DNA of 64,000 nt from Victivallaceae bacterium (GTDB taxonomy: Bacteria; Verrucomicrobiota; Lentisphaeria; Victivallales; Victivallaceae): NCBI GenBank assembly GCA_045532825.1, contig JAZSGR010000087.1, positions 206-64,205 of the forward strand, read 5' to 3'. The notes below the pieces were generated by a model that saw only the letters and a program-made list of their open reading frames with translations, was not told the origin of the DNA and ran no database searches. Below are positions 8,500-64,000 of the stretch, one piece after another. The position numbers and the translations under genes were made by a program. The stretch's first letter is position 1; every line of letters starts with the position of its first letter.

Positions 8500-10218
8500 T
8501 TACGGGAACTGCAGAGTATTTTCCACATGTTCAATCTGTTCCGGCGTCAGCTTACAGCAGTTGTATATTATTTTCTGCAGACACTCTTCCGCTCCGGTGT
8601 TTCCGGAAATGATCTCATCGACCAGACGACTTATTTCGGCATCAGTTCCGCCGGAAATTTCCGGGAAAGGCAGCTGCATGAGGCTGCTTTTGAGAATTTT
8701 CACATCGCCAAACATGACAGAATAATAATACCTCAAAACATTGGAATTGAGAAAACCCAGTACGGTACGGATACTCATCCCCGGGATGTGCGGAATCAGG
8801 ATATTGGCACTGTTGAGCACCAGACTGCGGGTATCATCCAGAGCAAAGACCAATCTGTCTGAAATAAATTTATAGACCAGTTTTTCCGGAGCCCGGTAAT
8901 ATTCATCCTTTGCCGCCTGCTGAAAATTTTTACGGTCATAATGCAGAAAACGGCATGCCGGAGACAAACGGTATGCACGGACCTCTTTTCCGGTAAAAAC
9001 CGGTTCCATGCCGTTTTCCAGCCTGTTTTTCACCTTGTTTTTATTATCTCCGGTCACGATGCCCAAAGCAAAATCACTGCGGTCAAGAAAAAAGTGTTTT
9101 ACTGCACATATCTGCGACAGTATCTTACGGTCGGTGTCAGAAATGAAAGCAAAAACATGATCTTTTGAATTTTCCACATCTTGCACAGAAACTTTTCCGC
9201 CGCTTCCGTTCCTGAACATTTCAAAACATTCCGCAGGCGGAGCATTGCTGATCTGAACAGCGGCATATCCGGTCATGACCCCGGTAAATGAACCGGAATG
9301 GATGATGATCTTTTCCAATTTCCTCTGCAGGATGAATTCCCGCAGTCCAGCATGGAGCTTCACCCGCAAAACCGCTTCCGGTAGCAGAAAATTCATCCTT
9401 CCGTCCGGCTTCAGCTGTTCCGCAGCGCGCCGGAAAAAGAGTCCGGAAGACTCACCCTTAACGCCGTGACTGCGGTTTTTTTCCGCCCCCCACGGCGGAT
9501 TGGAGGCTATAAGATCAAATTTCTGCCGGAACAAAGCATTTCCCTCACCCGCAGTTTTCTTTCCGGCAAGGTAATCGCAGCAGAATATCTGCGGAATAAA
9601 ATCATGTTCGCGGTATTTGCACAGCAAATTGACTCTGGCGATAAAAACCGCAACCGGATCTTTATCACATCCCCAAAGCATCTGCGGCAGCTCCGCACCG
9701 GCAGCAAGCAGAAAAGCACCGCTGCCGCAACAGGGATCAAAAAAGGTCTTTCCGTCTGAAAAATCAAAGTCCTCCAGCATACTTTCCACGATCCGGTGCG
9801 GAGTATAATAGGAACCGGCTATACTTTTTTCCCCTTCAGTGAGCAGACACTGATAAACAAATCCCAGTATATCAGCTTCGTTTTCCGGCACATATATATC
9901 ACTGAAAGCCCGGTGATAAGTTTCTGAAAATTCCGCAAGGACCGTCTGCGCCCTGCCGGAGTGGAAAAGATTTTTCTGTTTCAGCAGATTTACAGCAAGA
10001 GAAAAAACCGCCCGGCGGCGGGAAATATCATGTTCTGCACAAATGCGGAGTACCTGATAAGCAAATTTTTCATTCCTGCGGTCGTCGATGTATTCCAGAG
10101 GACATATCCGCTTTTCCGAACAGCTTTTGTTTGCCCGGTGCCGCAGTCTGCCGCAAGTCCCGGTTTCCAGACGCCGCCAGTTGCGGGAAGTGGCTTCAGA
10201 TACTTTCATTGCCGCCAT
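8500..10218 (-). CDS. N6-adenine DNA methyltransferase, Eco57I/TaqI-like gamma class, with C-terminal TaqI-like specificity domain
   Basis: 572 aa. SAM motif I is FFDPCCGSGAFLL and catalytic motif IV is NPPWG, with YYTPHRIV upstream. The C-terminal part (LGFLNSNVLRYYY) resembles the TaqI-type target-recognition domain. No nuclease gene is adjacent. The start may be the second ATG (10209), because 10196-10218 overlaps the upstream gene. Confidence 0.8.
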   Translation of the reverse strand: MAAMKVSEATSRNWRRLETGTCGRLRHRANKSCSEKRICPLEYIDDRRNEKFAYQVLRICAEHDISRRRAVFSLAVNLLKQKNLFHSGRAQTVLAEFSETYHRAFSDIYVPENEADILGFVYQCLLTEGEKSIAGSYYTPHRIVESMLEDFDFSDGKTFFDPCCGSGAFLLAAGAELPQMLWGCDKDPVAVFIARVNLLCKYREHDFIPQIFCCDYLAGKKTAGEGNALFRQKFDLIASNPPWGAEKNRSHGVKGESSGLFFRRAAEQLKPDGRMNFLLPEAVLRVKLHAGLREFILQRKLEKIIIHSGSFTGVMTGYAAVQISNAPPAECFEMFRNGSGGKVSVQDVENSKDHVFAFISDTDRKILSQICAVKHFFLDRSDFALGIVTGDNKNKVKNRLENGMEPVFTGKEVRAYRLSPACRFLHYDRKNFQQAAKDEYYRAPEKLVYKFISDRLVFALDDTRSLVLNSANILIPHIPGMSIRTVLGFLNSNVLRYYYSVMFGDVKILKSSLMQLPFPEISGGTDAEISRLVDEIISGNTGAEECLQKIIYNCCKLTPEQIEHVENTLQFP

Positions 10219-54514: not shown

Positions 54515-55378
54515 TCACCTGCTTTTGCGGTATTCCAGCGGAGAAACGCCGTAACAGGCTTTGAACGCATGAAAAAAGTACGGCATCTGTGAAAATCCGG
54601 AAAGTTCGGCGATATCGGGAAGGGCAATATCTGTTTTGAGCAGCAGTTCAGCAGCATGTTTGAGCCGCAGATTGCGCAGATACACCATAGGCGGAACTCC
54701 CATTGCGGCTTTGAAATGCCGGTTGAGGGTGGCGGGAGACATCGCCGCCAGAAGTGCCAGTTCCCCGAGATATATTTCCCGCTGGAAATGCTGCTGCATG
54801 TAATCGGTAAGTTTCCATATATCCAGCGGAACGAATTCCTCTTCTTCCACCCCGGACTGCCATGCGCCGCACAATCTGCTCAATACTGCCATAAAAATTC
54901 CGAGCTTATAACAATGGACATTGCTGTCTGCCAAAAGTTTCAACAGCGTTTCCAGTTCATTGAAAACCTCATCCGGCAGATGAGTCATGGGGAAATCGTT
55001 TTGTTTTTCCGTCATGCTCCTGCCGTGGAATATCTTTTTATAAACTCTGGTGGAGTAAAGTTCCAGCAGTACCGGCGGCAGGCGGACGGTATCGAACAGC
55101 AGATTTATCACTTCAAGATCCTCTGCTTCGGTATAAGCATGGGAACCGCCTTGCGGTATAACAATGACATCCCCCCTGCGGATGGGGACCGGCGGATCAT
55201 TTTCCGATTGATGCATACCTCTGCCCGCAGAGACAAAGACGCACTCACAAAACTCATGCCGGTGCGTTCCGGTGACGACCTGCGGAGTCTGGATCTTCAC
55301 TGTCAATGGAAATCCCGGATCATCCCGGAACACGGTTTTCATGCTCTTGCACAAACTGACTGATTTCATTTTCACCAC
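54515..55378 (-). CDS. AraC-family transcriptional regulator with N-terminal cupin sensor domain
   Basis: 287 aa. The C-terminal double HTH is LAAMSPATLNRHFKAAMGVPPMVYLRNLRLKHAAELL...IAELSGFSQMPYFFHAFKACYGVSPLEYR. Confidence 0.9.
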   Translation of the reverse strand: MVKMKSVSLCKSMKTVFRDDPGFPLTVKIQTPQVVTGTHRHEFCECVFVSAGRGMHQSENDPPVPIRRGDVIVIPQGGSHAYTEAEDLEVINLLFDTVRLPPVLLELYSTRVYKKIFHGRSMTEKQNDFPMTHLPDEVFNELETLLKLLADSNVHCYKLGIFMAVLSRLCGAWQSGVEEEEFVPLDIWKLTDYMQQHFQREIYLGELALLAAMSPATLNRHFKAAMGVPPMVYLRNLRLKHAAELLLKTDIALPDIAELSGFSQMPYFFHAFKACYGVSPLEYRKSR

Positions 55379-55554
55379 CCCGTCAAACTTTTACAGCGGT
55401 TACTATACACAGCGGATAATGATATTTCAAGCACCAAAAATAATATGATTAAAAAAAACATAAAATGATTTAATAAATTATTGCTTTATCAAAAAAACTC
55501 AATTACATTATAGCAGAACTTATTCCCCGGAAAGTATCATAAACGGAGATTGAA

Positions 55555-57663
55555 ATGAAATTACTCATCACACTGTTGTTCGCCGCCGTACTTCCTCTCA
55601 CAGCCTTTGCCGGTCATACTGTAATAAATTACAGCGGAACCGAGGACCGCTGGTCCGCAGGAGCAGTAAAATACCTTTTGGAATATCTTGAAGCAAGTAC
55701 CGGGGAAAAACCTCTGCTCAATGTTTCAACAGCTTCAGAGTACACCATAAATCTCGAAGTCAGAGCCGAAAAGGGAGATGATCCGGAAACCTTCCGTTTG
55801 AGCAGTCCCGGTCCGGGCAGGATCCTCATATCCGGAGCCAGCACGCTCGCCCTGCGCCACGGGGTCTGCGAATTTCTTGAACGCTGCGTCGGTATCCGCT
55901 GGCTTTTCACCGGCAAAAATGGGGAATACATCCCGGCCTGCCGCAAATACAAACTGCCGGAAAAACCTCTGGTGATGACTCCGGCATACAGTGTACGCAG
56001 TTTCTCATTGAACAACAAGCCCAACCGGGAATGGGCAGCAAAAAACAAGGGGATCTTTCATTATGATTACACTCATTTCCCCGACCGTCCCTGGTTCCAC
56101 CACAATTTGTGCAATCTGGTAACGGTTCAGAAGTACGGCAGCAGCAATCCGGAATTTTTCCCGTTGATAAAAGGCAGAAGAATGATCCCGGAGAAAAAAC
56201 AGCATATATTCTGGCAGCACTGTTTCACTGCACCGGGGATAACCGCTGCCTATATCCGTGACGTGAATAAAGCCTTCAGCAAACGTAAAAATCTGCAGAC
56301 CGTCTCCTTCGGGGTAAATGACGGCGGCGGTTTCTGTGAATGTGAGACCTGCCTGAAAGTGGATGGTAAAGATCCGCAAAACCGGATCCGCTCCTACCTG
56401 CGCTGTTTTGATGAAGTTGTCCGCAGCTGTTACCTTCCCGGCAGAACGTTCGGATTTCTCGCTTACGGAGCGATCAGAAAAGCTCCGGAAGACGGCAGAA
56501 AGTATCATCACGCACTGAAACCGTTTCTCACCTACGAGCGTCTTTACTGGTGCGATCCGGCAAAAAAAGCAAAAGATCAGCAGGAAACTCTCGCCTGGAG
56601 CAAAACCACCGGCAGCTGGATCGGTTGGTATGATTATCTGTCCTACCGTCATTTTCTGATTCCCAAAATCAGTTTGAATGTGACTCCGGAAGCGATCCGC
56701 TGGGGGGCGGCAAATAATGTAAGATATTATTATGCCGAAGCTCATCCGGCACCGGACTGGCATACCGGTCCGATGCTGACCATTCTGCTGAAACTGCTCT
56801 GGGATCCGGCTGCTGATGTTGATGCAGTGATGCGTGACTGGTGTGTTGCGGCAGTCGGTCCGGAAGCGGCGATCCACCTGGAAAATTATTTCAGACTCTG
56901 TTCAAAATACTGGGAAGAAGAGGTTCCGCAGACCGTATATTTCAAAACCGTCGACCGCAGCGGACAATATCTCAATATGGGCAGTTCCGGTTATCTGGAA
57001 AGAGTCGATGAAAAACTTCTCCGGCAGATGCAGAACGAGCTGGAAAAAACCGTAACCAAAGCCGCTCCCTACGGCAGGGAGCGGGCGCAAATGTTTCTGG
57101 ACGGATTAAAAAAACGTCTGCCGCAGATACGCGGATATCTTGAAAACAGCAAACTGCAGAAAGAACTCGGCAGTTTGAACTTCAAAACTGTCCTGAAAGA
57201 AGACTTCAATAAAAAACGGCTCTGGACCACATGGCAGAGAAAAGACAGCAAAGGCAAATTCTATTACAGCAGCGATGACGGAAGAAATAACTCCGGAGCA
57301 ATGGCGATGGATATGCGCAACGCCGGTAAAGCCATGGTTTACATGCGCAATGCCAAAGCAGTTCCGGGCAAAGTCTACCGGGCAACGATATACGTCCGCA
57401 ACCGGAACAGTCTGCCCGGAGCGCAGATGTCTCTGCGCATCGCCTGGGGAGCACCCGGCAAAGCATGGCTCGATCCGGCATTTGAAAAGACCGTATCGGT
57501 CACTGAGGACGGAGCTTATTTCTGGCGCAAACTGACGGTTTCAGCAGTTGCTCCCAATGTCGAAGGATGCTTCATAAAAATCGTTGCCTCCGGAAGTAAA
57601 TTGAAAAAGGGAGAGATTTTCTTTGATGATTTCACCCTTGAAGAAGCTGAACGCAGCAAGTAA
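55555..57663 (+). CDS. Secreted DUF4838-like protein (glycoside-hydrolase-like)
   Basis: 702 aa. The signal peptide is MKLLITLLFAAVLPLTAFA. LRHGVCEFLERCVGIRWLF and the CECETC cysteine cluster are remembered features of DUF4838. It is transcribed divergently from the AraC gene. Confidence 0.55.
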   Translation: MKLLITLLFAAVLPLTAFAGHTVINYSGTEDRWSAGAVKYLLEYLEASTGEKPLLNVSTASEYTINLEVRAEKGDDPETFRLSSPGPGRILISGASTLALRHGVCEFLERCVGIRWLFTGKNGEYIPACRKYKLPEKPLVMTPAYSVRSFSLNNKPNREWAAKNKGIFHYDYTHFPDRPWFHHNLCNLVTVQKYGSSNPEFFPLIKGRRMIPEKKQHIFWQHCFTAPGITAAYIRDVNKAFSKRKNLQTVSFGVNDGGGFCECETCLKVDGKDPQNRIRSYLRCFDEVVRSCYLPGRTFGFLAYGAIRKAPEDGRKYHHALKPFLTYERLYWCDPAKKAKDQQETLAWSKTTGSWIGWYDYLSYRHFLIPKISLNVTPEAIRWGAANNVRYYYAEAHPAPDWHTGPMLTILLKLLWDPAADVDAVMRDWCVAAVGPEAAIHLENYFRLCSKYWEEEVPQTVYFKTVDRSGQYLNMGSSGYLERVDEKLLRQMQNELEKTVTKAAPYGRERAQMFLDGLKKRLPQIRGYLENSKLQKELGSLNFKTVLKEDFNKKRLWTTWQRKDSKGKFYYSSDDGRNNSGAMAMDMRNAGKAMVYMRNAKAVPGKVYRATIYVRNRNSLPGAQMSLRIAWGAPGKAWLDPAFEKTVSVTEDGAYFWRKLTVSAVAPNVEGCFIKIVASGSKLKKGEIFFDDFTLEEAERSK

Positions 57664-57674
57664 GGTATGAACAG

Positions 57675-59948
57675 ATGAAACTTATAACCCTTGGAACCAG
57701 TCATGGTGATCCGGAGCTGAACCGCTTCAACTCCTCGCTGCTGCTGCGCAGCTCCGCCGGTGACTATATTTTTGAAGCAGGAGCTCCGGTCAATGCACTG
57801 CTGATCCGCAAAAACATACCGTTCAGCAATATCAAAGCGGTTTTCGTAAGTCACTCGCACGAAGATCACACCGGCGGACTGCCGGGACTGGTGAAATCGC
57901 TGATAAAGCGTCCGGTCCCCGGACAGCACACCCGTCTGCTGCTGCCGGAACAGGAATGTATCGATGCGCTGAAAGCCTTTGTTGATTCGACCCACCGTCC
58001 CTGGACGGATGATCTTATTTCAACAGAAGTCATCAGCTCCGGAACGATCTACGATGACGGCAACCTGCGGGTAACGGCATTTGCCACGGACCACATGGCG
58101 ATCAGTGGCAAAGCCTTTCCAAGCTGGGCGTTCCTCGCGGAAGCAGAGGGCAAACGCATCGTTTTCACTGGAGATTTAAGCAGAGATCTCCATGATTTTC
58201 CCATTGCCGCCTTCGATGCTCCTGCGCTCTGCGTAATGGAGTGCCAGCACTATAATGCCAAACTTGCCGGAGAACTGCTGAAAAAACTTCCGGTATCAGG
58301 ATTTATCGGAGTTCATATCTCCAGCCGGTGGAACGGTCACGCAAATGAATTTTACCGGACACTTGGTTCTCCGGATTTTCCCTTTGCATTTGCAGAAGAC
58401 GGAATGGAGTTTGATCTTGACCTGCCGGTAAGCTCCGGTTTTTCCGTTGCCGTTCTCGCTGATCTTCACCTGCCGGATGCTGATGATACGGTAAAAGAAC
58501 AGGTGCTGGACTGGACCGTTTCGGAACTGAAACGCTCAGGAGCCGGTCTGATCGCTGCCGCAGGCGACATGACTGGAACAGGTTCGCTTCAGGCAGCCCG
58601 CAGATTACGGAAAAAACTGAAAAATACCGGCTGCCGCTACATGTTCACCCCCGGCAACTCCGATCTGCGTTCAGCCGGTTCAACAGCAGAAATGCTCAGG
58701 ATACTCGGCACGTCTGACATTTCAGAACATGTTATTCTTCTTGACAGTTCGCAGGGAAAACTGAGCCGTAAATCAAGGATACTGCTCGCCGGACTGCTGG
58801 CGGACCGGAGCAGAAAAAACCTGCTCGCCATAACCCACTACCCGCCGGAGAACCTGCCGGAAGATGACGCCATGCTGCTGACAGCCGCGGCAAGATCCGG
58901 GATCATCAATCATCTGGTTTACGGTCACATGCATCATGATAAAAAGCATATCTGGAAAGGTCTGCCCTGCGAATGTCTCCGCGGACTTGATCCTGATAAA
59001 GCCTCAGGCGGTGCACCGTCATTTGCCATATTCAGCAGGTTGCCGGATAAGTCGTGGCAGAGAAAGAATAAAGTTTTCAGAACAGCGGTCCCCTCCTCAT
59101 GGAGCAGGGCGGAAAAGCAGAGCTTTATTGAAAATCTCGGTTTGTCGGCGATGAAAGATCCCTTCGGCACGCTGGATTTTGCCATTTCTGCCGGAGTACC
59201 GGTCCTGGAGTGGCGATTTGCCCTGTTTTCACCTGAAGATATGCAGAAATTCAAAAGCAAACTGGCTGACTGGCGCAAAAACGGCGGCAGGTGTTTATCT
59301 ATCCACTTTCCTGATATCCGGCTGGAAGGCGGTTCTCTCACGGGAACAGATATTCTCCGTATTGCGGTAAAAACGACGATAGAACTTGAAGCGCAGCGTA
59401 TAACGCTGCACGTTCCGCGTGTCACTGCCGGAGAGTTTGCCGATGATGCAACAGCTTCGCTCATTGCGGATGAAACAGCAGAAATACTTGCTCCGCTGGC
59501 GCAAAAAAGCATTGCTGCCGGCGTGGAAAATCTGCACATGTCTCCCGGTGAAAAAAGTGATCTTTCGCGCGGTTTCGGATACACGCCGCAGGAGGTGATA
59601 AGTTTTGCCGATATGCTGACCCGGCGCGGCATTCCGGCGGGCATACATCTTGATATCGGACACGCAAGAAACAATGCGCCGTTTTCCAAAACGTTCAATA
59701 TCAGCGACTGGTTTGCGATCTGCGGCAGCCGTATCAACGGCATGCATCTGCATCAGGTCACAGTCGATGAAAGCGGAAAAATGCTCAACCACCGGGCATT
59801 CACAGAGCCGTTCGGCAAGCTGATTTCCCTTGCTTCACTTTTCACGGCATGGAAAACGCACGCTGTCCCGCATGTTCCGCTGATCCTGGAAATTCGTCAG
59901 GATAGAGGTCCTGAATCTCTTGAACTGTTGAGAACTGTTTTCAAATAA
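57675..59948 (+). CDS. Three-domain fusion: MBL-fold hydrolase + calcineurin-like metallophosphoesterase + xylose-isomerase-like TIM barrel
   Basis: 757 aa. The N-terminal region has VSHSHEDHTGG, the HxHxDH motif. The middle region has VLADLHLPD, AAGDMTGTG, PGNSD and VYGHMHHD, the metallophosphoesterase motifs. The C-terminal region (HFPD...ITLHVP...VENLH...IHLDIGHA...GMHLHQ) matches the sugar-phosphate isomerase/epimerase TIM barrel pattern. Confidence 0.65.
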   Translation: MKLITLGTSHGDPELNRFNSSLLLRSSAGDYIFEAGAPVNALLIRKNIPFSNIKAVFVSHSHEDHTGGLPGLVKSLIKRPVPGQHTRLLLPEQECIDALKAFVDSTHRPWTDDLISTEVISSGTIYDDGNLRVTAFATDHMAISGKAFPSWAFLAEAEGKRIVFTGDLSRDLHDFPIAAFDAPALCVMECQHYNAKLAGELLKKLPVSGFIGVHISSRWNGHANEFYRTLGSPDFPFAFAEDGMEFDLDLPVSSGFSVAVLADLHLPDADDTVKEQVLDWTVSELKRSGAGLIAAAGDMTGTGSLQAARRLRKKLKNTGCRYMFTPGNSDLRSAGSTAEMLRILGTSDISEHVILLDSSQGKLSRKSRILLAGLLADRSRKNLLAITHYPPENLPEDDAMLLTAAARSGIINHLVYGHMHHDKKHIWKGLPCECLRGLDPDKASGGAPSFAIFSRLPDKSWQRKNKVFRTAVPSSWSRAEKQSFIENLGLSAMKDPFGTLDFAISAGVPVLEWRFALFSPEDMQKFKSKLADWRKNGGRCLSIHFPDIRLEGGSLTGTDILRIAVKTTIELEAQRITLHVPRVTAGEFADDATASLIADETAEILAPLAQKSIAAGVENLHMSPGEKSDLSRGFGYTPQEVISFADMLTRRGIPAGIHLDIGHARNNAPFSKTFNISDWFAICGSRINGMHLHQVTVDESGKMLNHRAFTEPFGKLISLASLFTAWKTHAVPHVPLILEIRQDRGPESLELLRTVFK

Positions 59949-59961
59949 AGGAGTTTGATTT

Positions 59962-61020
59962 ATGACGGATCTGAAAAACAATCAGGGCGGTATTTTCCGC
60001 AGCAGTGTCAATGTTGAAACACATGCAAAAAACAAATCAGAGAACAAAAAACATTTCACCCTTATCGAGCTGCTGGTAGTCACTTCACAACACTGCCGTC
60101 ATTTTATACATAACTCTTGTTTTGCGTCAGCAAAAACTTTTTCGCTTTTCTTGACCCTCCGCCGCCCTGCGGGCTATGGAGGGCAGGAAGATAAAACCAG
60201 TCCTTATAATACTTGCAAAGCAAGTGCTTCATATTTGCCGCAGGCAAACGCTTCATGCAGCAACGCTGCGCTTCACACGGCAGAGCCGTGCTTCATTCGA
60301 TCAACGTTCACGTTGATCGAGCTTCTGGTTGTGATCGCTATTATTGCGATATTGGCGGCGATGCTGCTTCCTGCGCTGCAGCAGGCGCGGGAACGGGCGA
60401 GGATGACCAACTGCATGAGTAATGAAAGGGGCATCGGGACGGGTGTAAGCATGTATGTGCAGGACTTTGATTATCTTCCGGGCTGCGGAGACGGTTCCAC
60501 CGGCAACGGAAGTTTGTTCACCTATGTCGGACCTTATGTCGGTTACGGCAACATGATGCATTCCAGGGTATTTTACACCGACAGCCGTTCAGTGCTGCCG
60601 TTGTACCTGTGTCCATCTGACAACGAACCGATTTTGAAAGGAACCAATTTCGGGGGCTTGAACGGAGTTTCCTACATTGCCTCGAATGTGCTGGCAAGAA
60701 CGGAGATCAATGGTGAGATCAAAACGATTTCAGGCAGAAAGATCTCAACTGTAAAAAATCCATCGCAAAAATTTTTCTTTCTGGAATCCGGAAACGGAGC
60801 TGAGAATAAATATTCCGCCGGATACGCTTCCCACAAACGTGTTGCCTACCGGCATCCGGCGGGAGCGGCGAAAATTTTTGATTCAAACCAGCTGGTCGGC
60901 AATGCCGGTATGAACGTCTGCTACGCCGACGGACGTGCCTCCGCATGGCGCGGTGCCGTCACCACTGCCGATACTGATGATCCAAATGGAATATACACTA
61001 AACACTGGATACTCAACTGA
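59962..61020 (+). CDS. Pseudopilin-like (prepilin-type N-terminal methylation motif) protein with duplicated FTLIELLVV motif and 75-codon in-frame insert
   Basis: 352 aa with AAGGAG 8 nt upstream of the ATG. The first motif lies at 60055-60081, the insert at 60082-60306, and the second motif at 60307-60333. The second motif continues into the full hydrophobic helix [29 protein letters not shown]. Confidence 0.8.
60082..60232 (+). repeat. Conserved 151-nt insert module, copy 1
   Basis: 146 of 151 positions are identical to 61287-61437. It starts immediately after the GTC (Val) codon of the first motif. It contains hairpins TTTTGC/GCAAAA (60120-60135, then a T-rich tract), CCCTCC..GCCC/GGGC..GGAGGG (60155-60183) and CTTGC/GCAAG (60212-60224). 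Confidence 0.9.
60212..60296 (+). repeat. Array of four mini-hairpins, each followed by YGCTTCAY
   Basis: The four hairpins are CTTGC-AAA-GCAAG tGCTTCAt, TTTGCC-GCA-GGCAAA cGCTTCAt, GCAGC-AAC-GCTGC gCTTCAc and CACGGC-AGA-GCCGTG CTTCAt. The period is about 20-23 nt. Every stem is 5-6 bp and every loop is 3 nt. Confidence 0.85.
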
Positions 61021-61049
61021 ACTGAAACTCTCCCTCTGTACAAGCACGG

Positions 61050-61088
61050 CTCAACTTGTGAAAAGACAATGCACAAGTTGAGTTTTTT
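61050..61088 (+). terminator. Rho-independent terminator after the first pseudopilin-like gene
   Basis: An 11-bp stem, CTCAACTTGTG (61050-60) with CACAAGTTGAG (61072-82), followed by TTTTTT (61083-88). Confidence 0.8.
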
Positions 61089-61232
61089 GCATAATCTTTG
61101 CATTGTTTTCACATATAAACACCTTGTTATTGCAAAAACACGGGATATAGTAATCCGTAACATGGGAAATAATTTTTCAGCACACAAAACAGTATGCAGA
61201 AAACAATTACAAAAAAACGGAGGGTAAACAAA

Positions 61233-62294
61233 ATGCAGGTCAAAAACAGTAAAAACAATTTTACGTTGATTGAACTTCTGGTGGTCACTTCACAACACTG
61301 CCGTCATTTTATACATAACTCTTGTTTTGCGTCAGCAAAAACTTTTTCGCTTTTCTTGACCCTCCGCCGCCCTGCGGGCTATGGAGGGCAGGAAGGTAAA
61401 ACCAGTCCTTATAATGCTTGCGGAGCAAGCGCTTCATGTACTGCACATAACGCCGTTTTTGCGTCAGCAAAAACTTTTTCGCTTTTCTTGAAAGGGGAAT
61501 GGGGTTTTGGGAAAGGGGAAAACCTCTTTTCCCGGGAAAAGAAGTTTTCCCCTTTCCCCAAGAACGCCTTTACCTTAATAGAGCTGCTGGTCGTCATCGC
61601 GATCATTGCGATACTTGCGGCGATGCTGATGCCGGCATTGCAGCAGGCGCGTGAGCGCGGACGCACCATATCATGTGTTTCCAATCTGCGTCAGCTTTAC
61701 AATTACTGGTTTGAATATGCCAATGACAACAAAGATTATGTTCTTGCTGCGTGGAAACCGATGACTCCTGCCGGAGATCTGATAAACTGGATGGAAAAAC
61801 TGCTGCTTGACCGTTTCAATGTAAAACTTGGCGACCCGGTCCCGAAAAGCACCGGACAGCTTTTTTCCTGTCCCTCGGACAACAGCGGCAATTATGTGTA
61901 CAATAAAACTAAAATAAAACCCGCCAGCTATGCGCTCAACCGCGGCTTCGGCTGGGGTTCGTTCAGCGGCATCAACGGCTGTGCAAGTTCCGGAGGGATT
62001 TATTTCTCAAAAATCACCCAGCGCAATCCCAATACCGGAAAAACCATCGTTTTTGCCGACAACTGGAAACGGGCGATGATGAAGGGCAACAGTAATGCTG
62101 CGCTCTCTTCTGATACCAAGGTCGCGCTTCAGAAAGAATATGATCTTGGTATTTACAGTCCGCATGGAAACGGAATGAACACTGTATTCCTGAACGGCAG
62201 TGTTTCGACGGTAAATTACAGATGGAGGTGCAACTGGTGTTTTCTCGGCGATCTCTGGAACCGGAAACCCACTGAAATTTCCATGGTCCAATAA
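61233..62294 (+). CDS. Pseudopilin-like (prepilin-type N-terminal motif, H-X9-(D/N)G-like C-terminus) protein with duplicated FTLIELLVV motif and 94-codon in-frame insert
   Basis: I prefer the start at the ATG at 61233 ([18 protein letters not shown], with GGAGGG upstream); the track ORF starts at 61194. The first motif lies at 61260-61286, the insert at 61287-61568 and the second motif at 61569-61595, followed by [32 protein letters not shown] near the C-terminus resembles the H-X9-DG motif. Confidence 0.8.
61287..61437 (+). repeat. Conserved 151-nt insert module, copy 2
   Basis: Partner of 60082-60232. Four of the five differences cluster around the CTTGC/GCAAG hairpin (loop AAA versus GGA and the flanking bases). 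None falls in a stem. Confidence 0.9.
61457..61491 (+). repeat. Third copy of the 35-nt sub-repeat TTTTGCGTCAGCAAAAACTTTTTCGCTTTTCTTGA
   Basis: Identical to 60120-60154 and 61325-61359, which lie inside the 151-nt modules. It is a hairpin TTTTGC-GTCA-GCAAAA followed by a T-rich tract and translates as [11 protein letters not shown] each time. Confidence 0.9.
61509..61558. repeat. 50-nt near-perfect palindrome (G-rich arm / C-rich arm) inside the insert
   Basis: GGGAAAGGGGAAAAC (61509-23) pairs with GTTTTCCCCTTTCCC (61544-58), 15 bp. The inner CTTTTCC/GGAAAAG stem closes a CCGG centre, with one C-A mismatch. Both strands encode nearly the same peptide: [18 protein letters not shown] forward and [18 protein letters not shown] in the reverse ORF 61409-61684. 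Confidence 0.9.
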
Positions 62295-62310
62295 AAAGTT
62301 TCTGTAAAAA

Positions 62311-64000
62311 ATGTATATGTCAAACCCGTCTGTACTGCGGAGGATCCTCCGCAGGTCGTTTGCTGTATGTTTTTCTGCGGCGGTGGTATCCGTCGCACAA
62401 GCTGTTGAGAATAACGTTATGAATGCAAAAAAATATGTCGTGACAAGCCGCATTGACGGTTTCAAGGATTCTTATCATCTCCACGATGCCGGAGCAGGCA
62501 GTGATTGTCTGGTCCATCTCCACGGACACAACGCAAACGGCGATCAGCCGTTTGTCAGAGAAGAGATCGCTGCTCAACTGCGTCCACTGGTAAAAAAGTA
62601 TAATTTAAGTATTTTTTCACCCAATCTGCGGAACAATGCCTGGATGTCACCGGCAGCAGTTGCCGATCTGCGCGATATGCTGCTGGAGCTGAAGGCAAAG
62701 CGCAAGTATAAACGTTTTTTCTTTATCTGCGCCAGCATGGGCGGTACCGGCGGATTGATCTTTGCCTCACAGCATCCGGAACTGGTCAGTGGTCTGGCTG
62801 TCCTCGGTGCGGCGACCGATCTTCCCCGTTACCGGGAGTACCTGCTGAGATATCACAAAGAGACCGGCAGGGATATCTTCCTTGAGATCGCACAGGCGAT
62901 AAAAAATAATCACACTGAAAAATCTCTTGAAGAATACAGTGTCTGCAAAAACTTTGAAAAACTCACCATGCCGCTGGTATTTTATCACGGCAGAGAGGAT
63001 TATGTGATGCCGGTCACAGAAATGTATGCGCTTCAGCAGAAAATGGTTAATTTCCCCAATGCTGAATTCAAAGCTGTTCCCGGTCCTCACAACGCGCCCG
63101 TGGAGTTCAGAGAGGAGGTCTTTGAAAAGATCTATCATTACCAGGCTCCGGCAAAGGTGAAAAATGATCTTGAGATCATCATTCCGGTAACTCTTGAAAG
63201 CGATTGGAAGAGCTGCGAAGAGACAGCTGCTGCGATCATGGAACAGTACCGGCTTTACGGTTTCACGAATTTTGCGCTGGCAATGCCGGATAAAGGCTGG
63301 CGCAGCCGTCATTATCCGCCGGAAAGTTTCTTTGCCGGACAGGCGGAAAAGCTGCTCAAGGTAAAAAAACTTCTGCCGCCGTTCATCCGTTGCGGCTGGT
63401 GGCACACTCTGATACTGAAATCCGGTCCGACTCCGGGACTTACAAGGATAATGCGCCTCAACGGGACGGAATCTCCGTTCTCGACCTGTCCGCTTGATCC
63501 GGAATACCGCAGACGTTTTGCCCAAGACGTTGCGACCGTGTTGAAAACAGCCAAACCGGCATTCATGATAACCGAAGATGACTTCAGTTTGAACTGTCAC
63601 GGCGGTCCCGGATGTTACTGCAAACATCATCTGGAAGCATTTGCCAAAAAAGAGGGCAGATATTATTCCCGTGAGGAACTGGAAAAACTTTTCACCCAAA
63701 CTCCGGAACAGTCACGGGAACTTCTCCGCCGCTATCAGGAGTCTCTCAAAGACAGTCTGGTACAGTTCGCTTCAGCCATCCGTGAAGCAGCGGACTCCGT
63801 TGCTCCGGAGATCCCCATCGGCTTCATGCAGCCGGGAAATCATGCCAAAGACGGCAACTCTGCCGAAGCAGTAGCAAGAGCTCTGGCGGGCAAAAATCAC
63901 ACTCCGTTCATACGTTTCAACGGCACGTTCTACTGTGGTGAAAGCATTCCTGGAATTCCTTCGCGGCTGTTCAACTGTCTTTATTACAAACAGCACATCA
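62311..64000 (+). CDS. Secreted protein: N-terminal alpha/beta-hydrolase (esterase-like) domain plus uncharacterised C-terminal domain; 3' end cut by window edge
   Basis: Absent from the track because it has no stop inside the window. Manual translation from the ATG at 62311 reads MYMSNPSVLRRILRRSFAVCFSAAVVSVAQAVENNVMNAKKYVV...HLHGHNANGD...FFICASMGGTGGLIFASQHPELV...FYHGREDYVMP... and then ...PGCYCKHHLEAFAKKEGRYYSREELE... It stays open to 64000. An in-frame TAA lies at 62305-07. The N-terminus looks like a signal peptide. The minus-strand ORF 62767-63699 is its shadow. Confidence 0.7.
   Translation, partial: MYMSNPSVLRRILRRSFAVCFSAAVVSVAQAVENNVMNAKKYVVTSRIDGFKDSYHLHDAGAGSDCLVHLHGHNANGDQPFVREEIAAQLRPLVKKYNLSIFSPNLRNNAWMSPAAVADLRDMLLELKAKRKYKRFFFICASMGGTGGLIFASQHPELVSGLAVLGAATDLPRYREYLLRYHKETGRDIFLEIAQAIKNNHTEKSLEEYSVCKNFEKLTMPLVFYHGREDYVMPVTEMYALQQKMVNFPNAEFKAVPGPHNAPVEFREEVFEKIYHYQAPAKVKNDLEIIIPVTLESDWKSCEETAAAIMEQYRLYGFTNFALAMPDKGWRSRHYPPESFFAGQAEKLLKVKKLLPPFIRCGWWHTLILKSGPTPGLTRIMRLNGTESPFSTCPLDPEYRRRFAQDVATVLKTAKPAFMITEDDFSLNCHGGPGCYCKHHLEAFAKKEGRYYSREELEKLFTQTPEQSRELLRRYQESLKDSLVQFASAIREAADSVAPEIPIGFMQPGNHAKDGNSAEAVARALAGKNHTPFIRFNGTFYCGESIPGIPSRLFNCLYYKQHI

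Follow-up and report, generated by a model that had tools for sequence, protein, structure and literature searches.

How two neighbouring genes came to be interrupted at exactly the same codon, and by inserts that leave the reading frame open, is the question raised by a stretch of 64,000 nucleotides from a Victivallaceae bacterium (Lentisphaeria; contig JAZSGR010000087.1), to which we refer as the window. The two genes are pseudopilin-like, lie in tandem on the forward strand and are here called gene 1 and gene 2. In each of them the sequence coding for the motif FTLIELLVV is present twice, with an insert between the two copies and a hydrophobic helix following the second. We consider these inserts to be members of a dispersed, modular family of intragenic hairpin repeats that would be translated as a long disposable leader and reshuffled among paralogues by recombination, a reading to which we assign a probability of about 0.55. 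The hairpins of the family are conserved at the level of the nucleic acid, the inserts differ strongly between strains that are otherwise nearly identical, and leaders are found re-assorted with gene bodies.

The inserts and the motif copies that bracket them

The four motif copies of the two genes (Table 1) are the only ones in the window, where a degenerate codon search expected none by chance, and any two of them differ at 5 to 8 of their 27 nt, every difference being synonymous. This amount of divergence confirms that they are not a fresh target-site duplication, as had been argued in the original prediction for this locus, which was made from the sequence without database searches; its statements on motif copies, insert bounds, open frames, out-of-frame ATGs and synonymous differences all held on re-examination. 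The two inserts are mosaics of four modules (M1-M4) that are made up of small hairpins. Over their first ~150 nt they show almost no differences, whereas the gene sequence flanking them is only ~75-80% identical; they are accordingly of more recent origin, or have been homogenised more, than the surrounding genes. Both inserts are open in the frame of their gene, and the remaining frames contain stops (1-4 in the forward and 1-5 in the reverse frames). After mononucleotide shuffling 3.3% of the sequences derived from insert 1 and 0.8% of those derived from insert 2 stayed open in frame, odds that are not independent because ~150 nt are common to both inserts.

Several lines of evidence distinguish the two motif copies within each gene. 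The Pfam and NCBIfam pilin-type models match the second motif only, in both genes: PF07963 (N_methyl) gave 23.1 bits for gene 1 (cut-off 21.2; residues 116-136) and 35.1 bits for gene 2 (residues 111-133), and TIGR02532 gave 24.4 and 32.8 bits, respectively (cut-off 16.3). The helix after the second motif runs into (L/M)PALQQARE. Family-wide, the upstream motif is altered in 17 of 68 cases and the downstream motif in 1 of 53 (Fisher P = 2e-4), with FTLIGLLV, FALIELLV, FSFTKLPV and KRSPELPV as altered upstream forms. These counts identify the upstream copy as a relic under relaxed constraint and the downstream copy as the functional signal, which we call the working motif.

A good Shine-Dalgarno (SD) sequence followed by ATG lies solely upstream of the first motif in both genes; no SD sequence with ATG or GTG was found ahead of the second motif in either of them, and the ATG triplets at 60255 and 61436 are out of frame. 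In the case of gene 2 the start is most likely at 61233 rather than at 61194, judging from the orthologous sequence P0069, which begins MQVKNSKNN. The leader ahead of the working motif would thus comprise 115 residues in gene 1 and 112 in gene 2, as against the ~115-125 residues first proposed. The DUF1559 model PF07596 (SBP_bac_10), with a cut-off of 23.3 bits, was matched by gene 1 (29.2 bits, residues 140-227); gene 2 reached 17.2 bits and remained under that cut-off. In the AlphaFold model of gene 1, residues 1-106 mostly have a predicted local distance difference test score (pLDDT) below 50, and the helix at 118-169 and the globular domain exceed 90. A Foldseek comparison of this model with the PDB returned no significant fold match, the pilin matches being insignificant (E = 0.74 and 1.3).

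Table 1. Positions of the two genes, their motif copies and the parts of their inserts, counted from the first nucleotide of the window (ORF, open reading frame; SD, Shine-Dalgarno sequence; M1-M4, modules)
Feature	Positions	Strand	Basis or remark
SD of gene 1, AAGGAG	59948-59953	+	8 nt 5' of ATG 59962; read from the sequence
Gene 1, pseudopilin-like (N_methyl + DUF1559), 352 aa including 115-residue leader	59962-61020	+	ORF, Pfam, TIGR02532, AlphaFold model
Upstream (relic) FTLIELLVV copy, gene 1	60055-60081	+	Motif search; no hydrophobic helix after it; missed by N_methyl models
Insert 1, 225 nt, 75 codons, open in frame; M1+M2+M3	60082-60306	+	Sequence comparison
Module M1	60082-60154	+	Identical copy at 61287-61359; its 3' 35 nt again at 61457-61491
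Module M2, nested hairpin CCCTCC..GCCC-TGC-GGGC..GGAGGG	60155-60209	+	Copy at 61360-61414
Module M3, hairpin array with GCTTCA(T) spacers	60210-60306	+	Hairpins at 60211-60225, 60234-60248, 60257-60269, 60276-60290
Junction hairpin H5, TCGATCAACG-TTCA-CGTTGATCGA	60297-60320	+	3' arm is formed by the T-L-I-E codons of the working motif
Working motif and hydrophobic helix, gene 1	60307-60369	+	Pfam, TIGR02532, AlphaFold model
SD of gene 2, GGAGGG	61219-61224	+	8 nt 5' of ATG 61233; read from the sequence
Gene 2, pseudopilin-like, 353 aa from ATG 61233	61233-62294	+	ORF, Pfam, TIGR02532; mechanical ORF start at 61194
Upstream (relic) FTLIELLVV copy, gene 2	61260-61286	+	Motif search
Insert 2, 282 nt, 94 codons, open in frame; M1 + M2 + first M3 hairpin unit + repeat of M1 3' half + M4	61287-61568	+	Sequence comparison
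132-nt block	61325-61456	+	Missing from matching inserts of L013, L005, L007; bounded by 35-nt direct repeats (61325-61359 / 61457-61491), exact placement ambiguous
First hairpin unit of the M3 array in insert 2	61416-61438	+	Sequence comparison
Module M4	61492-61568	+	Sequence comparison
M4 core, loop-free palindrome with 28-nt arms	61506-61561	+	Other copies hold an extra mini-hairpin at the centre
Working motif and helix, gene 2	61569-61631	+	Pfam, TIGR02532

A family of hairpin arrays in pseudopilin leaders

An exhaustive HMMER search of 1.84 billion protein cluster representatives with the insert peptide found it in 73 representatives, all the named ones being Lentisphaeria, and ~50 of them being full-length (300-370 aa) pseudopilin/DUF1559-like proteins (we denote related proteins by P-numbers and related DNA contigs by L-numbers). 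Most of these ~50 proteins have the architecture of leader, FTLIELLVx, modules, and working motif with helix. One gene may contain a series of as many as three motif copies, and P0009, P0082 and P0088 carry several inserts one after another, while in P0028, P0032, P0037, P0045 and P0047 the modules form a plain N-terminal leader that has no upstream motif. In addition to variants of M3 and M4, further module types were recognised (TSQLCRDFFKRFICTDQYGCVRKHTE.., SATCQIGVLPLYYLKK.. and KRSHLCC..). M3 was almost identical in a metagenome-assembled genome (MAG) from sheep colon, and every copy seen sits in pseudopilin-type leaders. The restriction to the two genes of the window, which the original prediction had named as fatal to it, thus clearly does not hold, and its proposal of a repeated element family tied to this motif agrees with the copies found at the FTLIELLV motif of many genes.

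Nevertheless, insert-bearing genes are a minority of a few percent, since 114 of the 118 closest homologues of gene 1 have a single motif (median leader of 11.5 residues). When the insert peptide was used in a word-indexed protein search, short Lentisphaeria fragments were the only matches, and many fragment matches fall at the ends of small contigs, a placement to be expected if such repeats break assemblies. An exact-pattern scan for hairpin H4 in species-representative genomes and JGI metagenomes, collections that hardly sample this lineage and do not include the window's own genome, gave one true copy (L001) and three chance matches (L002-L004).

Module M3 consists of hairpins of 13-17 nt separated by GCTTCA(T), the final hairpin pairing with the first codons of the working motif. 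We compared the DNA of the arrays in L001, L009, L013, L022, L023, L026 and L027 and based the pairing statistics on six arrays. Across related arrays the same GCTTCA(T) spacer separates stems that vary in sequence, and 95.5% of the cells were paired in the six arrays against 29-42% when the partners were slid by 1-3 columns. Two-sided (compensatory) changes affected 8 of the 33 pairs, a figure matched by 0-1 of 500 shuffles (for example, ATTTGCC/GGCAAAT in place of ATTTTCC/GGAAAAT, and GCACT/AGTGC in place of GCCCC/GGGGC). At one position the junction hairpin exists as G:C (L001), as G:T (L013) and as A:T, and a second compensated position is found in L026. The order of the hairpins differs between arrays, and identical hairpin DNA reads LPQAN or ICRRQ depending on the gene; because the same hairpin DNA is read in different frames, the conservation is at the level of the nucleic acid.

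The arrays are also strictly oriented. M3 has no stop in its three forward frames and has stops in all three reverse frames, and within the 241 kb examined all clusters of at least three GCTTCA lie inside such arrays, always on the sense strand. The motif follows 11 nt downstream in 8 of 12 distinct GCTTCA clusters, and in the others we found the motif at 31 nt, a long extra hairpin before the motif, or the end of the contig. Four G:T and four C:A mismatches were counted in the arrays, and because these numbers are equal the folded molecule may be either the mRNA or the DNA. Rfam gave no match to the inserts at the gathering threshold; in its permissive mode it gave only microRNA-like matches on the M4 palindrome and sub-threshold matches to the family Gut-1, and no intron or ribozyme family was matched at gathering or permissive thresholds. 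Two further pairings were considered and rejected. A hairpin at the left junction, between the LLVV codons and ACTGCCG, was predicted, but it requires three wobbles and is broken in L001. Pairing of the 5' end of the insert (CAACACTGCCGTCA) with the downstream helix codons, or its derivation as their reverse complement, was discarded as L001 shows no covariation there.

The comparison of arrays yielded several observations on how modules are built. A fifth module, M5 (L013, 3145-3223; also in L001, L006, L009 and L016), contains four GTACGGA repeats 10-11 nt apart (TGTACGGATCAGTACGGATGTGTACGGAAACATACGGAG), and modules related to it read ..ETDDYGQVRTVTD.., which suggests the same ACGGA periodicity. 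The M4 copies at L013 4379-4429 and L005 ~10170-10200 have one more small hairpin (GCCGACGGTCGGC) right in the middle of the palindrome, and hairpin H4 is wrapped in extra outer arms in L009 and L027; palindromes seem to grow by nested additions. In L009 (9167-9725; also L010-L012, and P0013 and P0015) 559 nt stand out of frame between two motifs: a truncated M5+M3 meets, at hairpin H4, a promoter-like and AT-rich block of ~240 nt that has its own SD sequence and ATG (MTFYRT..) and reads into M2 and an M3 variant. This block is a repeated module itself, because the same junction of H4 with AT-rich sequence recurs behind a different N-terminus in P0013.

Other arrangements of the motif were met as well. 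In L007 (10247-10285) and L008 the second motif after M1+M4 leads into another module (SATC*IGVLPLYYLKN, with a stop) and there is no gene body; genes for conjugative transfer (TraG/TrwB, TrbI and ParA-like) follow immediately downstream on the other strand, so that an orphan leader fragment lies beside an integrated conjugative element. P0168, P0191 (from a Victivallis vadensis MAG) and P0193 represent other kinds of double motif, one of which breaks after IAIIAIL and another of which holds an unrelated insert (TAQQNCFSKFKNDTSLRPTGRTSRIFDNSQKCSSHLHIFTQSA). Given these other kinds, duplication of the signal motif seems to be recurrent in the phylum.

Turnover between near-identical strains

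The contigs L013-L015 are syntenic with the window, come from other samples, and were compared with it over 7 kb. Between the window and L013 we counted ~0-3 differences per 100 nt along these 7 kb, save for 75 differences at 60100-60399, 172 at 61300-61599 and 12 at 62300-62399, and the two largest of these clusters are the two inserts. In gene 1 of L013 positions 60106-60205 (the remainder of M1 and M2) are swapped for a 79-nt module with GTACGGA repeats, and further substitutions continue across M3 and the second motif into the first codons of the helix, a pattern that resembles a conversion tract ending, on its right side, within the conserved helix codons. In gene 2 of L013 51 nt stand in place of 61360-61525, an extra mini-hairpin is present at the centre of the M4 palindrome, and the 132-nt block is absent. 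L016 and L013 agree in the body and insert of gene 1 but differ in leader, first motif and upstream genes, and the switch falls where the first motif ends. The third cluster of differences (62300-62399) covers the first codons of the downstream gene (ATG at ~62311), where the differences flank both sides of a perfectly conserved 20-nt palindrome (CTGCGGAGGATCCTCCGCAG, 62336-62355).

Re-assortment is also apparent in the protein set, where six leaders were each seen with 2-3 downstream states. The insert-free states among them are P0121, which has the leader of gene 1, and P0175, on a 63-kb contig. P0121 can be given little weight because its contig L019, in which the insert-free gene 1 leader stands on another gene body, is covered ~1x and is possibly chimeric. 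A syntenic orthologue from a more distant species (~72% nucleotide identity for upstream gene and gene body alike) possesses a single motif, a leader of 35 residues and no insert. The empty-site paralogues and orthologues that the original prediction proposed to look for are hence present in P0175 and in the syntenic orthologue, and weakly in P0121. High identity between insert copies in different genes ends at both motif boundaries, and neither motif copy therefore travels with the recently spread sequence. Recombination among the many paralogues, one of several causes suggested at the outset, is supported by the module swaps in near-identical strains, the re-assortment of leaders with bodies and the empty-site relatives.

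The genomic neighbourhood of the insert-bearing pseudopilin genes is recurrent too, as they repeatedly adjoin genes for AraC/GntR-type regulators, DUF4838 proteins or glycoside hydrolases (window 54515-59948, L009, L013, L022, L023 and L027), a layout that resembles that of a polysaccharide-utilisation locus. Bacteria of the Planctomycetes-Verrucomicrobia-Chlamydiae group have very large families of pseudopilin-like DUF1559 genes, obscure in their role and often located beside glycan-degrading genes. Elsewhere in the window, and unrelated to the inserts, positions 8503-10218 of the reverse strand encode an N6-adenine DNA methyltransferase (Eco57I-type) whose specificity domain is TaqI-like; this restriction-modification enzyme seems to be solitary or fused.

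Explanations for the inserts and their meaning

Under the reading that we prefer, translation would start at the upstream SD sequence and ATG, both of which are present in the sequence together with the open frame, and would run through the relic motif and the insert to the working motif, so that the leader would be ~112-115 residues long. The insert would be tolerated in this position because the leader of a class III (prepilin-type) signal would stay in the cytoplasm and be dispensable or cleaved off. What would be maintained is the nucleic-acid structure rather than the peptide, that is, the GCTTCA(T)-spaced hairpins and the final one pairing with the motif codons. Homologous recombination or gene conversion, anchored in the element and in the motif and helix codons, would homogenise, swap and move the copies and would at the same time re-assort leader/promoter regions with gene bodies. 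The swaps and the re-assortment of leaders with bodies are visible in the strain comparison, and homology-dependent repair is the probable route of spreading. The constant junction at the same codon would be inherited rather than re-created in each event, because it lies just where the homology shared with ordinary paralogues stops, directly behind the LLV(V) codons.

Several observations weigh against this reading. A leader of more than 100 residues is, to our knowledge, far beyond those of known prepilins. Glycine at position -1 is nearly invariant in canonical prepilins. A short basic leader (~5-30 residues) ending in this glycine was not found in either gene, and cleavage is uncertain because the -1 residue is T or A here (codons 60052-60054, 60304-60306, 61257-61259 and 61566-61568) and mostly H, R, S or N in the family (H 40, R 18, S 14, N 10 and Gly 3 before the motif F of the 118 homologues). 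Either the peptidase specificity is relaxed in this Lentisphaeria pseudopilin/DUF1559 family or there is no cleavage at F. The compensatory changes and the invariant GCTTCA(T) hint at a sequence-specific function or a recognising protein, neither of which a passive repeat would need. Homeologous recombination on a 27-nt motif is inefficient. Furthermore, the modules TSQHCR.., SATCQIG.. and KRSHLC.. all begin after LLV, and this may reflect a hot spot or a site-specific process instead of one founder. The counts of open frames are biased because most examples were found as predicted proteins, and at least three copies are interrupted (L005 and L007 by a stop, which in L007 lies in the module behind the second motif, and L009 by being out of frame).

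Because the preferred reading does not account for the origin of the first double-motif gene, for the shared starts after LLV or for a possible reader of the GCTTCA(T) spacers and hairpins, a dedicated hairpin-recognising enzyme is a live rival. The arrays could be the ends or the cargo of a non-autonomous element moved by such an enzyme encoded elsewhere, for which the candidates are a Y1/HUH single-strand transposase of the IS200/IS605 type or of the type associated with repetitive extragenic palindromic (REP) sequences (REP-associated tyrosine transposase, RAYT), or else a site-specific recombinase. Such an enzyme would act on the LLV codons of the motif, a replacement copy of which would be brought in by the element or by a circular intermediate, as in att-site duplications in tRNA genes. 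We regard this possibility as unlikely, although several observations favour it: the junction is constant after LLV in several module types, a conserved single-stranded heptamer lies between hairpins with compensatory changes, the start of the motif sits inside the junction hairpin, several inserts may stand in series within one gene, and non-identical flanking repeats are the expected residue of recombination between diverged att-like sites. There is also an inverted match of 7-10 nt between the 5' end of the insert (CTCTGCCGTG in L001) and hairpin H4; this is the only inverted match, however, and together with flanking 27-nt repeats that differ at 5-8 positions it sets the inserts apart from miniature inverted-repeat transposable elements. 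Among the 36 ORFs of the window Pfam identified no transposase or integrase, including Y1 (HUH) transposases of the REP/RAYT or IS200/IS605 type, and the genes are ordinary chromosomal ones; plasmid, phage and viral-contig collections contained no match to the inserts, and no full-length autonomous version was seen. Arrays that are plain leaders with no upstream motif, and the exclusion of both motif copies from the recently spread sequence, also speak against transposition of this kind. The site-specific mobile or homing element proposed at first is thus upheld as to a repeated family at the motif, but homing is unneeded, as an inherited junction suffices and no transposase or integrase is encoded nearby. 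We think it quite improbable that the arrays are instead the cis sites of a dedicated recombination system that recognises hairpins or cruciforms and swaps leader/promoter cassettes and modules among the pseudopilin paralogues, the GCTTCA(T)-spaced hairpins and the motif-codon hairpin then being its recognition and crossover points; if true, this would be a programmed variation system aimed at class III signal-peptide codons.

Covariation of the hairpins may also be taken to indicate a cis structure co-opted by the host, with the hairpin/GCUUCAU array of the mRNA, or the palindromes of the DNA, binding a regulator or tuning translation and mRNA stability of pseudopilin genes, or with the array offering a portable block of homology for cassette re-assortment as a variation system. 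Such a role would accord with folding energy z-scores of -3.4 and -4.5, with the strict sense orientation and fixed distance to the motif, and with the demonstrated re-assortment of leaders and bodies and the hypervariability between strains, and Gut-1, similar in architecture, is held to be a likely RNA by its authors (PMC2864571). Yet inserts occur in ~3% of close family members, which excludes a general requirement; the order and content of modules vary freely, stops interrupt some copies, and the balance of G:T and C:A mismatches does not favour folding of the sense RNA over palindromy of the DNA. In addition, template-switch correction can mechanically produce compensation in palindromes. 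We find a co-opted structure rather unlikely. Removal of the insert, be it as a self-splicing intron or IStron, through translational bypass as in T4 gene 60, or by DNA excision between the motifs, would yield a protein with a short leader, and direct repeats of the motif do bracket the insert, with hairpins at both junctions. It is nonetheless very improbable given the lack of intron models, the different 3' halves of the two inserts (only the 5' half is common), the frame kept open with no stop at the would-be take-off site, and the decay of the relic motif; motif copies 5-8 of 27 nt apart would moreover be a poor substrate for precise recombination. The RNA-processed intervening sequence contemplated in the original prediction is left without support on the same grounds, since an open frame would be needless if the insert were removed. 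As to particular candidates, a group I or II intron or an IStron is rejected by the absence of Rfam matches and by a similarity of the two inserts that is limited to the 5' half, a bypass element (T4 gene 60 or mitochondrial byps) by the frame being open across the whole insert, and an intein by the absence of any Pfam domain (including Hint/splicing domains) within residues 32-115 of gene 1 and by a peptide that is not conserved across reading frames. Finally, such repeats do break assemblies, and the low-coverage contig L019 may be chimeric; but an assembly artefact, a possibility also raised at the outset, or a chance duplication is hardly credible, as the double-motif architecture recurs in many independent ENA, NCBI and JGI assemblies, including syntenic contigs of several samples, and no chance motif matches were expected.

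Comparison with known systems places the inserts, interpreted as a translated hairpin-repeat family, close to elements that reside within reading frames. Rickettsia palindromic elements (RPEs) are in-frame translated palindromic repeats in Rickettsia protein genes (Ogata et al. 2000, as summarised in PMC10969869). According to that summary they share with the Lentisphaeria inserts a size of ~100-300 nt, palindromic structure, translation in frame as an extra peptide, several families or modules and the lack of an internal transposase (PMC10969869). A palindromic repeat kept open and in frame within ORFs is indeed what we observed. As summarised there, however, RPEs are found in many unrelated genes and consist of one long palindrome, whereas the inserts described here are limited to the leaders of a single paralogous gene family, in which they take one codon position between two copies of a host motif, and are arrays of small hairpins with a constant GCTTCA(T) spacer; the hosts are different as well (Lentisphaeria versus Rickettsia), and kinship in sequence is not to be expected. 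By analogy, RPEs are the nearest functional counterpart of the inserts, although the range of genes sets the inserts outside the RPEs proper. REP sequences, bacterial interspersed mosaic elements (BIMEs) and pneumococcal BOX elements are likewise modular mosaics of short imperfect palindromes with compensatory variation, strain-variable copy number and order, and use as recombination substrates, but these are extragenic, and REPs are tied to RAYT transposases and a conserved GTAG, whereas the Lentisphaeria arrays are intragenic, stop-free and restricted to the sense strand, with no RAYT in the DNA examined.

Gut-1 (RF01706) is the sole Rfam family that repeatedly matched the arrays. Its members are tandem hairpins with GUGAA spacers, recorded only from the human gut (Weinberg et al. 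2010, PMC2864571), and in the published alignment they are intergenic, follow terminators and have the spacer GUGAAAU or GUGAUAU (PMC2864571). Both groups come from gut metagenomes and consist of small hairpins in tandem, set apart by a short spacer that does not vary: (G)UGAA in the case of Gut-1, UGAAGC (minus strand) in that of the arrays. Because the arrays score 25.8, 22.8 and 21.4 bits against a gathering score of 50, because these matches are antisense and because the published members are intergenic, Gut-1 is a look-alike and the arrays are not members of it. The Neisseria pilE/pilS system also involves recombination among many pilin-type paralogues and partial copies, giving mosaic alleles that differ between close strains. 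There, variation affects the exposed domain of the mature protein, the 5' end is missing from the silent copies and coding variation is exchanged, whereas in Lentisphaeria variation affects the leader, the orphan copies are 5' fragments and the DNA exchanged is a repeat element. Duplicated att sites, which integrative elements leave behind at conserved gene ends such as those of tRNA genes, resemble our case in that non-identical direct repeats of a conserved host segment bracket an insert, the displaced copy decaying and the copy in the gene body staying intact, but here there is no integrase and no large element, the insert measures only 150-560 nt, and high identity stops at the motif boundaries.

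No earlier description of these inserts was found in the literature on the motif, on Lentisphaerae, DUF1559 or prepilins, or on Victivallis pseudopilins, and by analogy the inserts would be a previously undescribed relative of the in-frame palindromic elements. What distinguishes them is that they are confined to a single motif in a single gene family, that one hairpin takes in the host motif, and that turnover between near-identical strains is extreme. The 5' ends of pseudopilin genes in gut Lentisphaeria host a translatable repeat family whose evolution is that of nucleic-acid hairpins and which ranks with the most variable sequence in strains that are otherwise almost identical over the 7 kb compared. 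This would be a second independent example, after the RPEs of Rickettsia, of selfish or structural DNA inside reading frames, its tolerance being explained by the position in a disposable leader. Repeats of this kind explain the assembly breaks at pseudopilin genes, the odd leaders of 100 residues produced by gene callers, and the orphan N-terminal fragments, and they offer a concrete mechanism by which a large paralogous family can re-assort its gene bodies with promoters and leaders.

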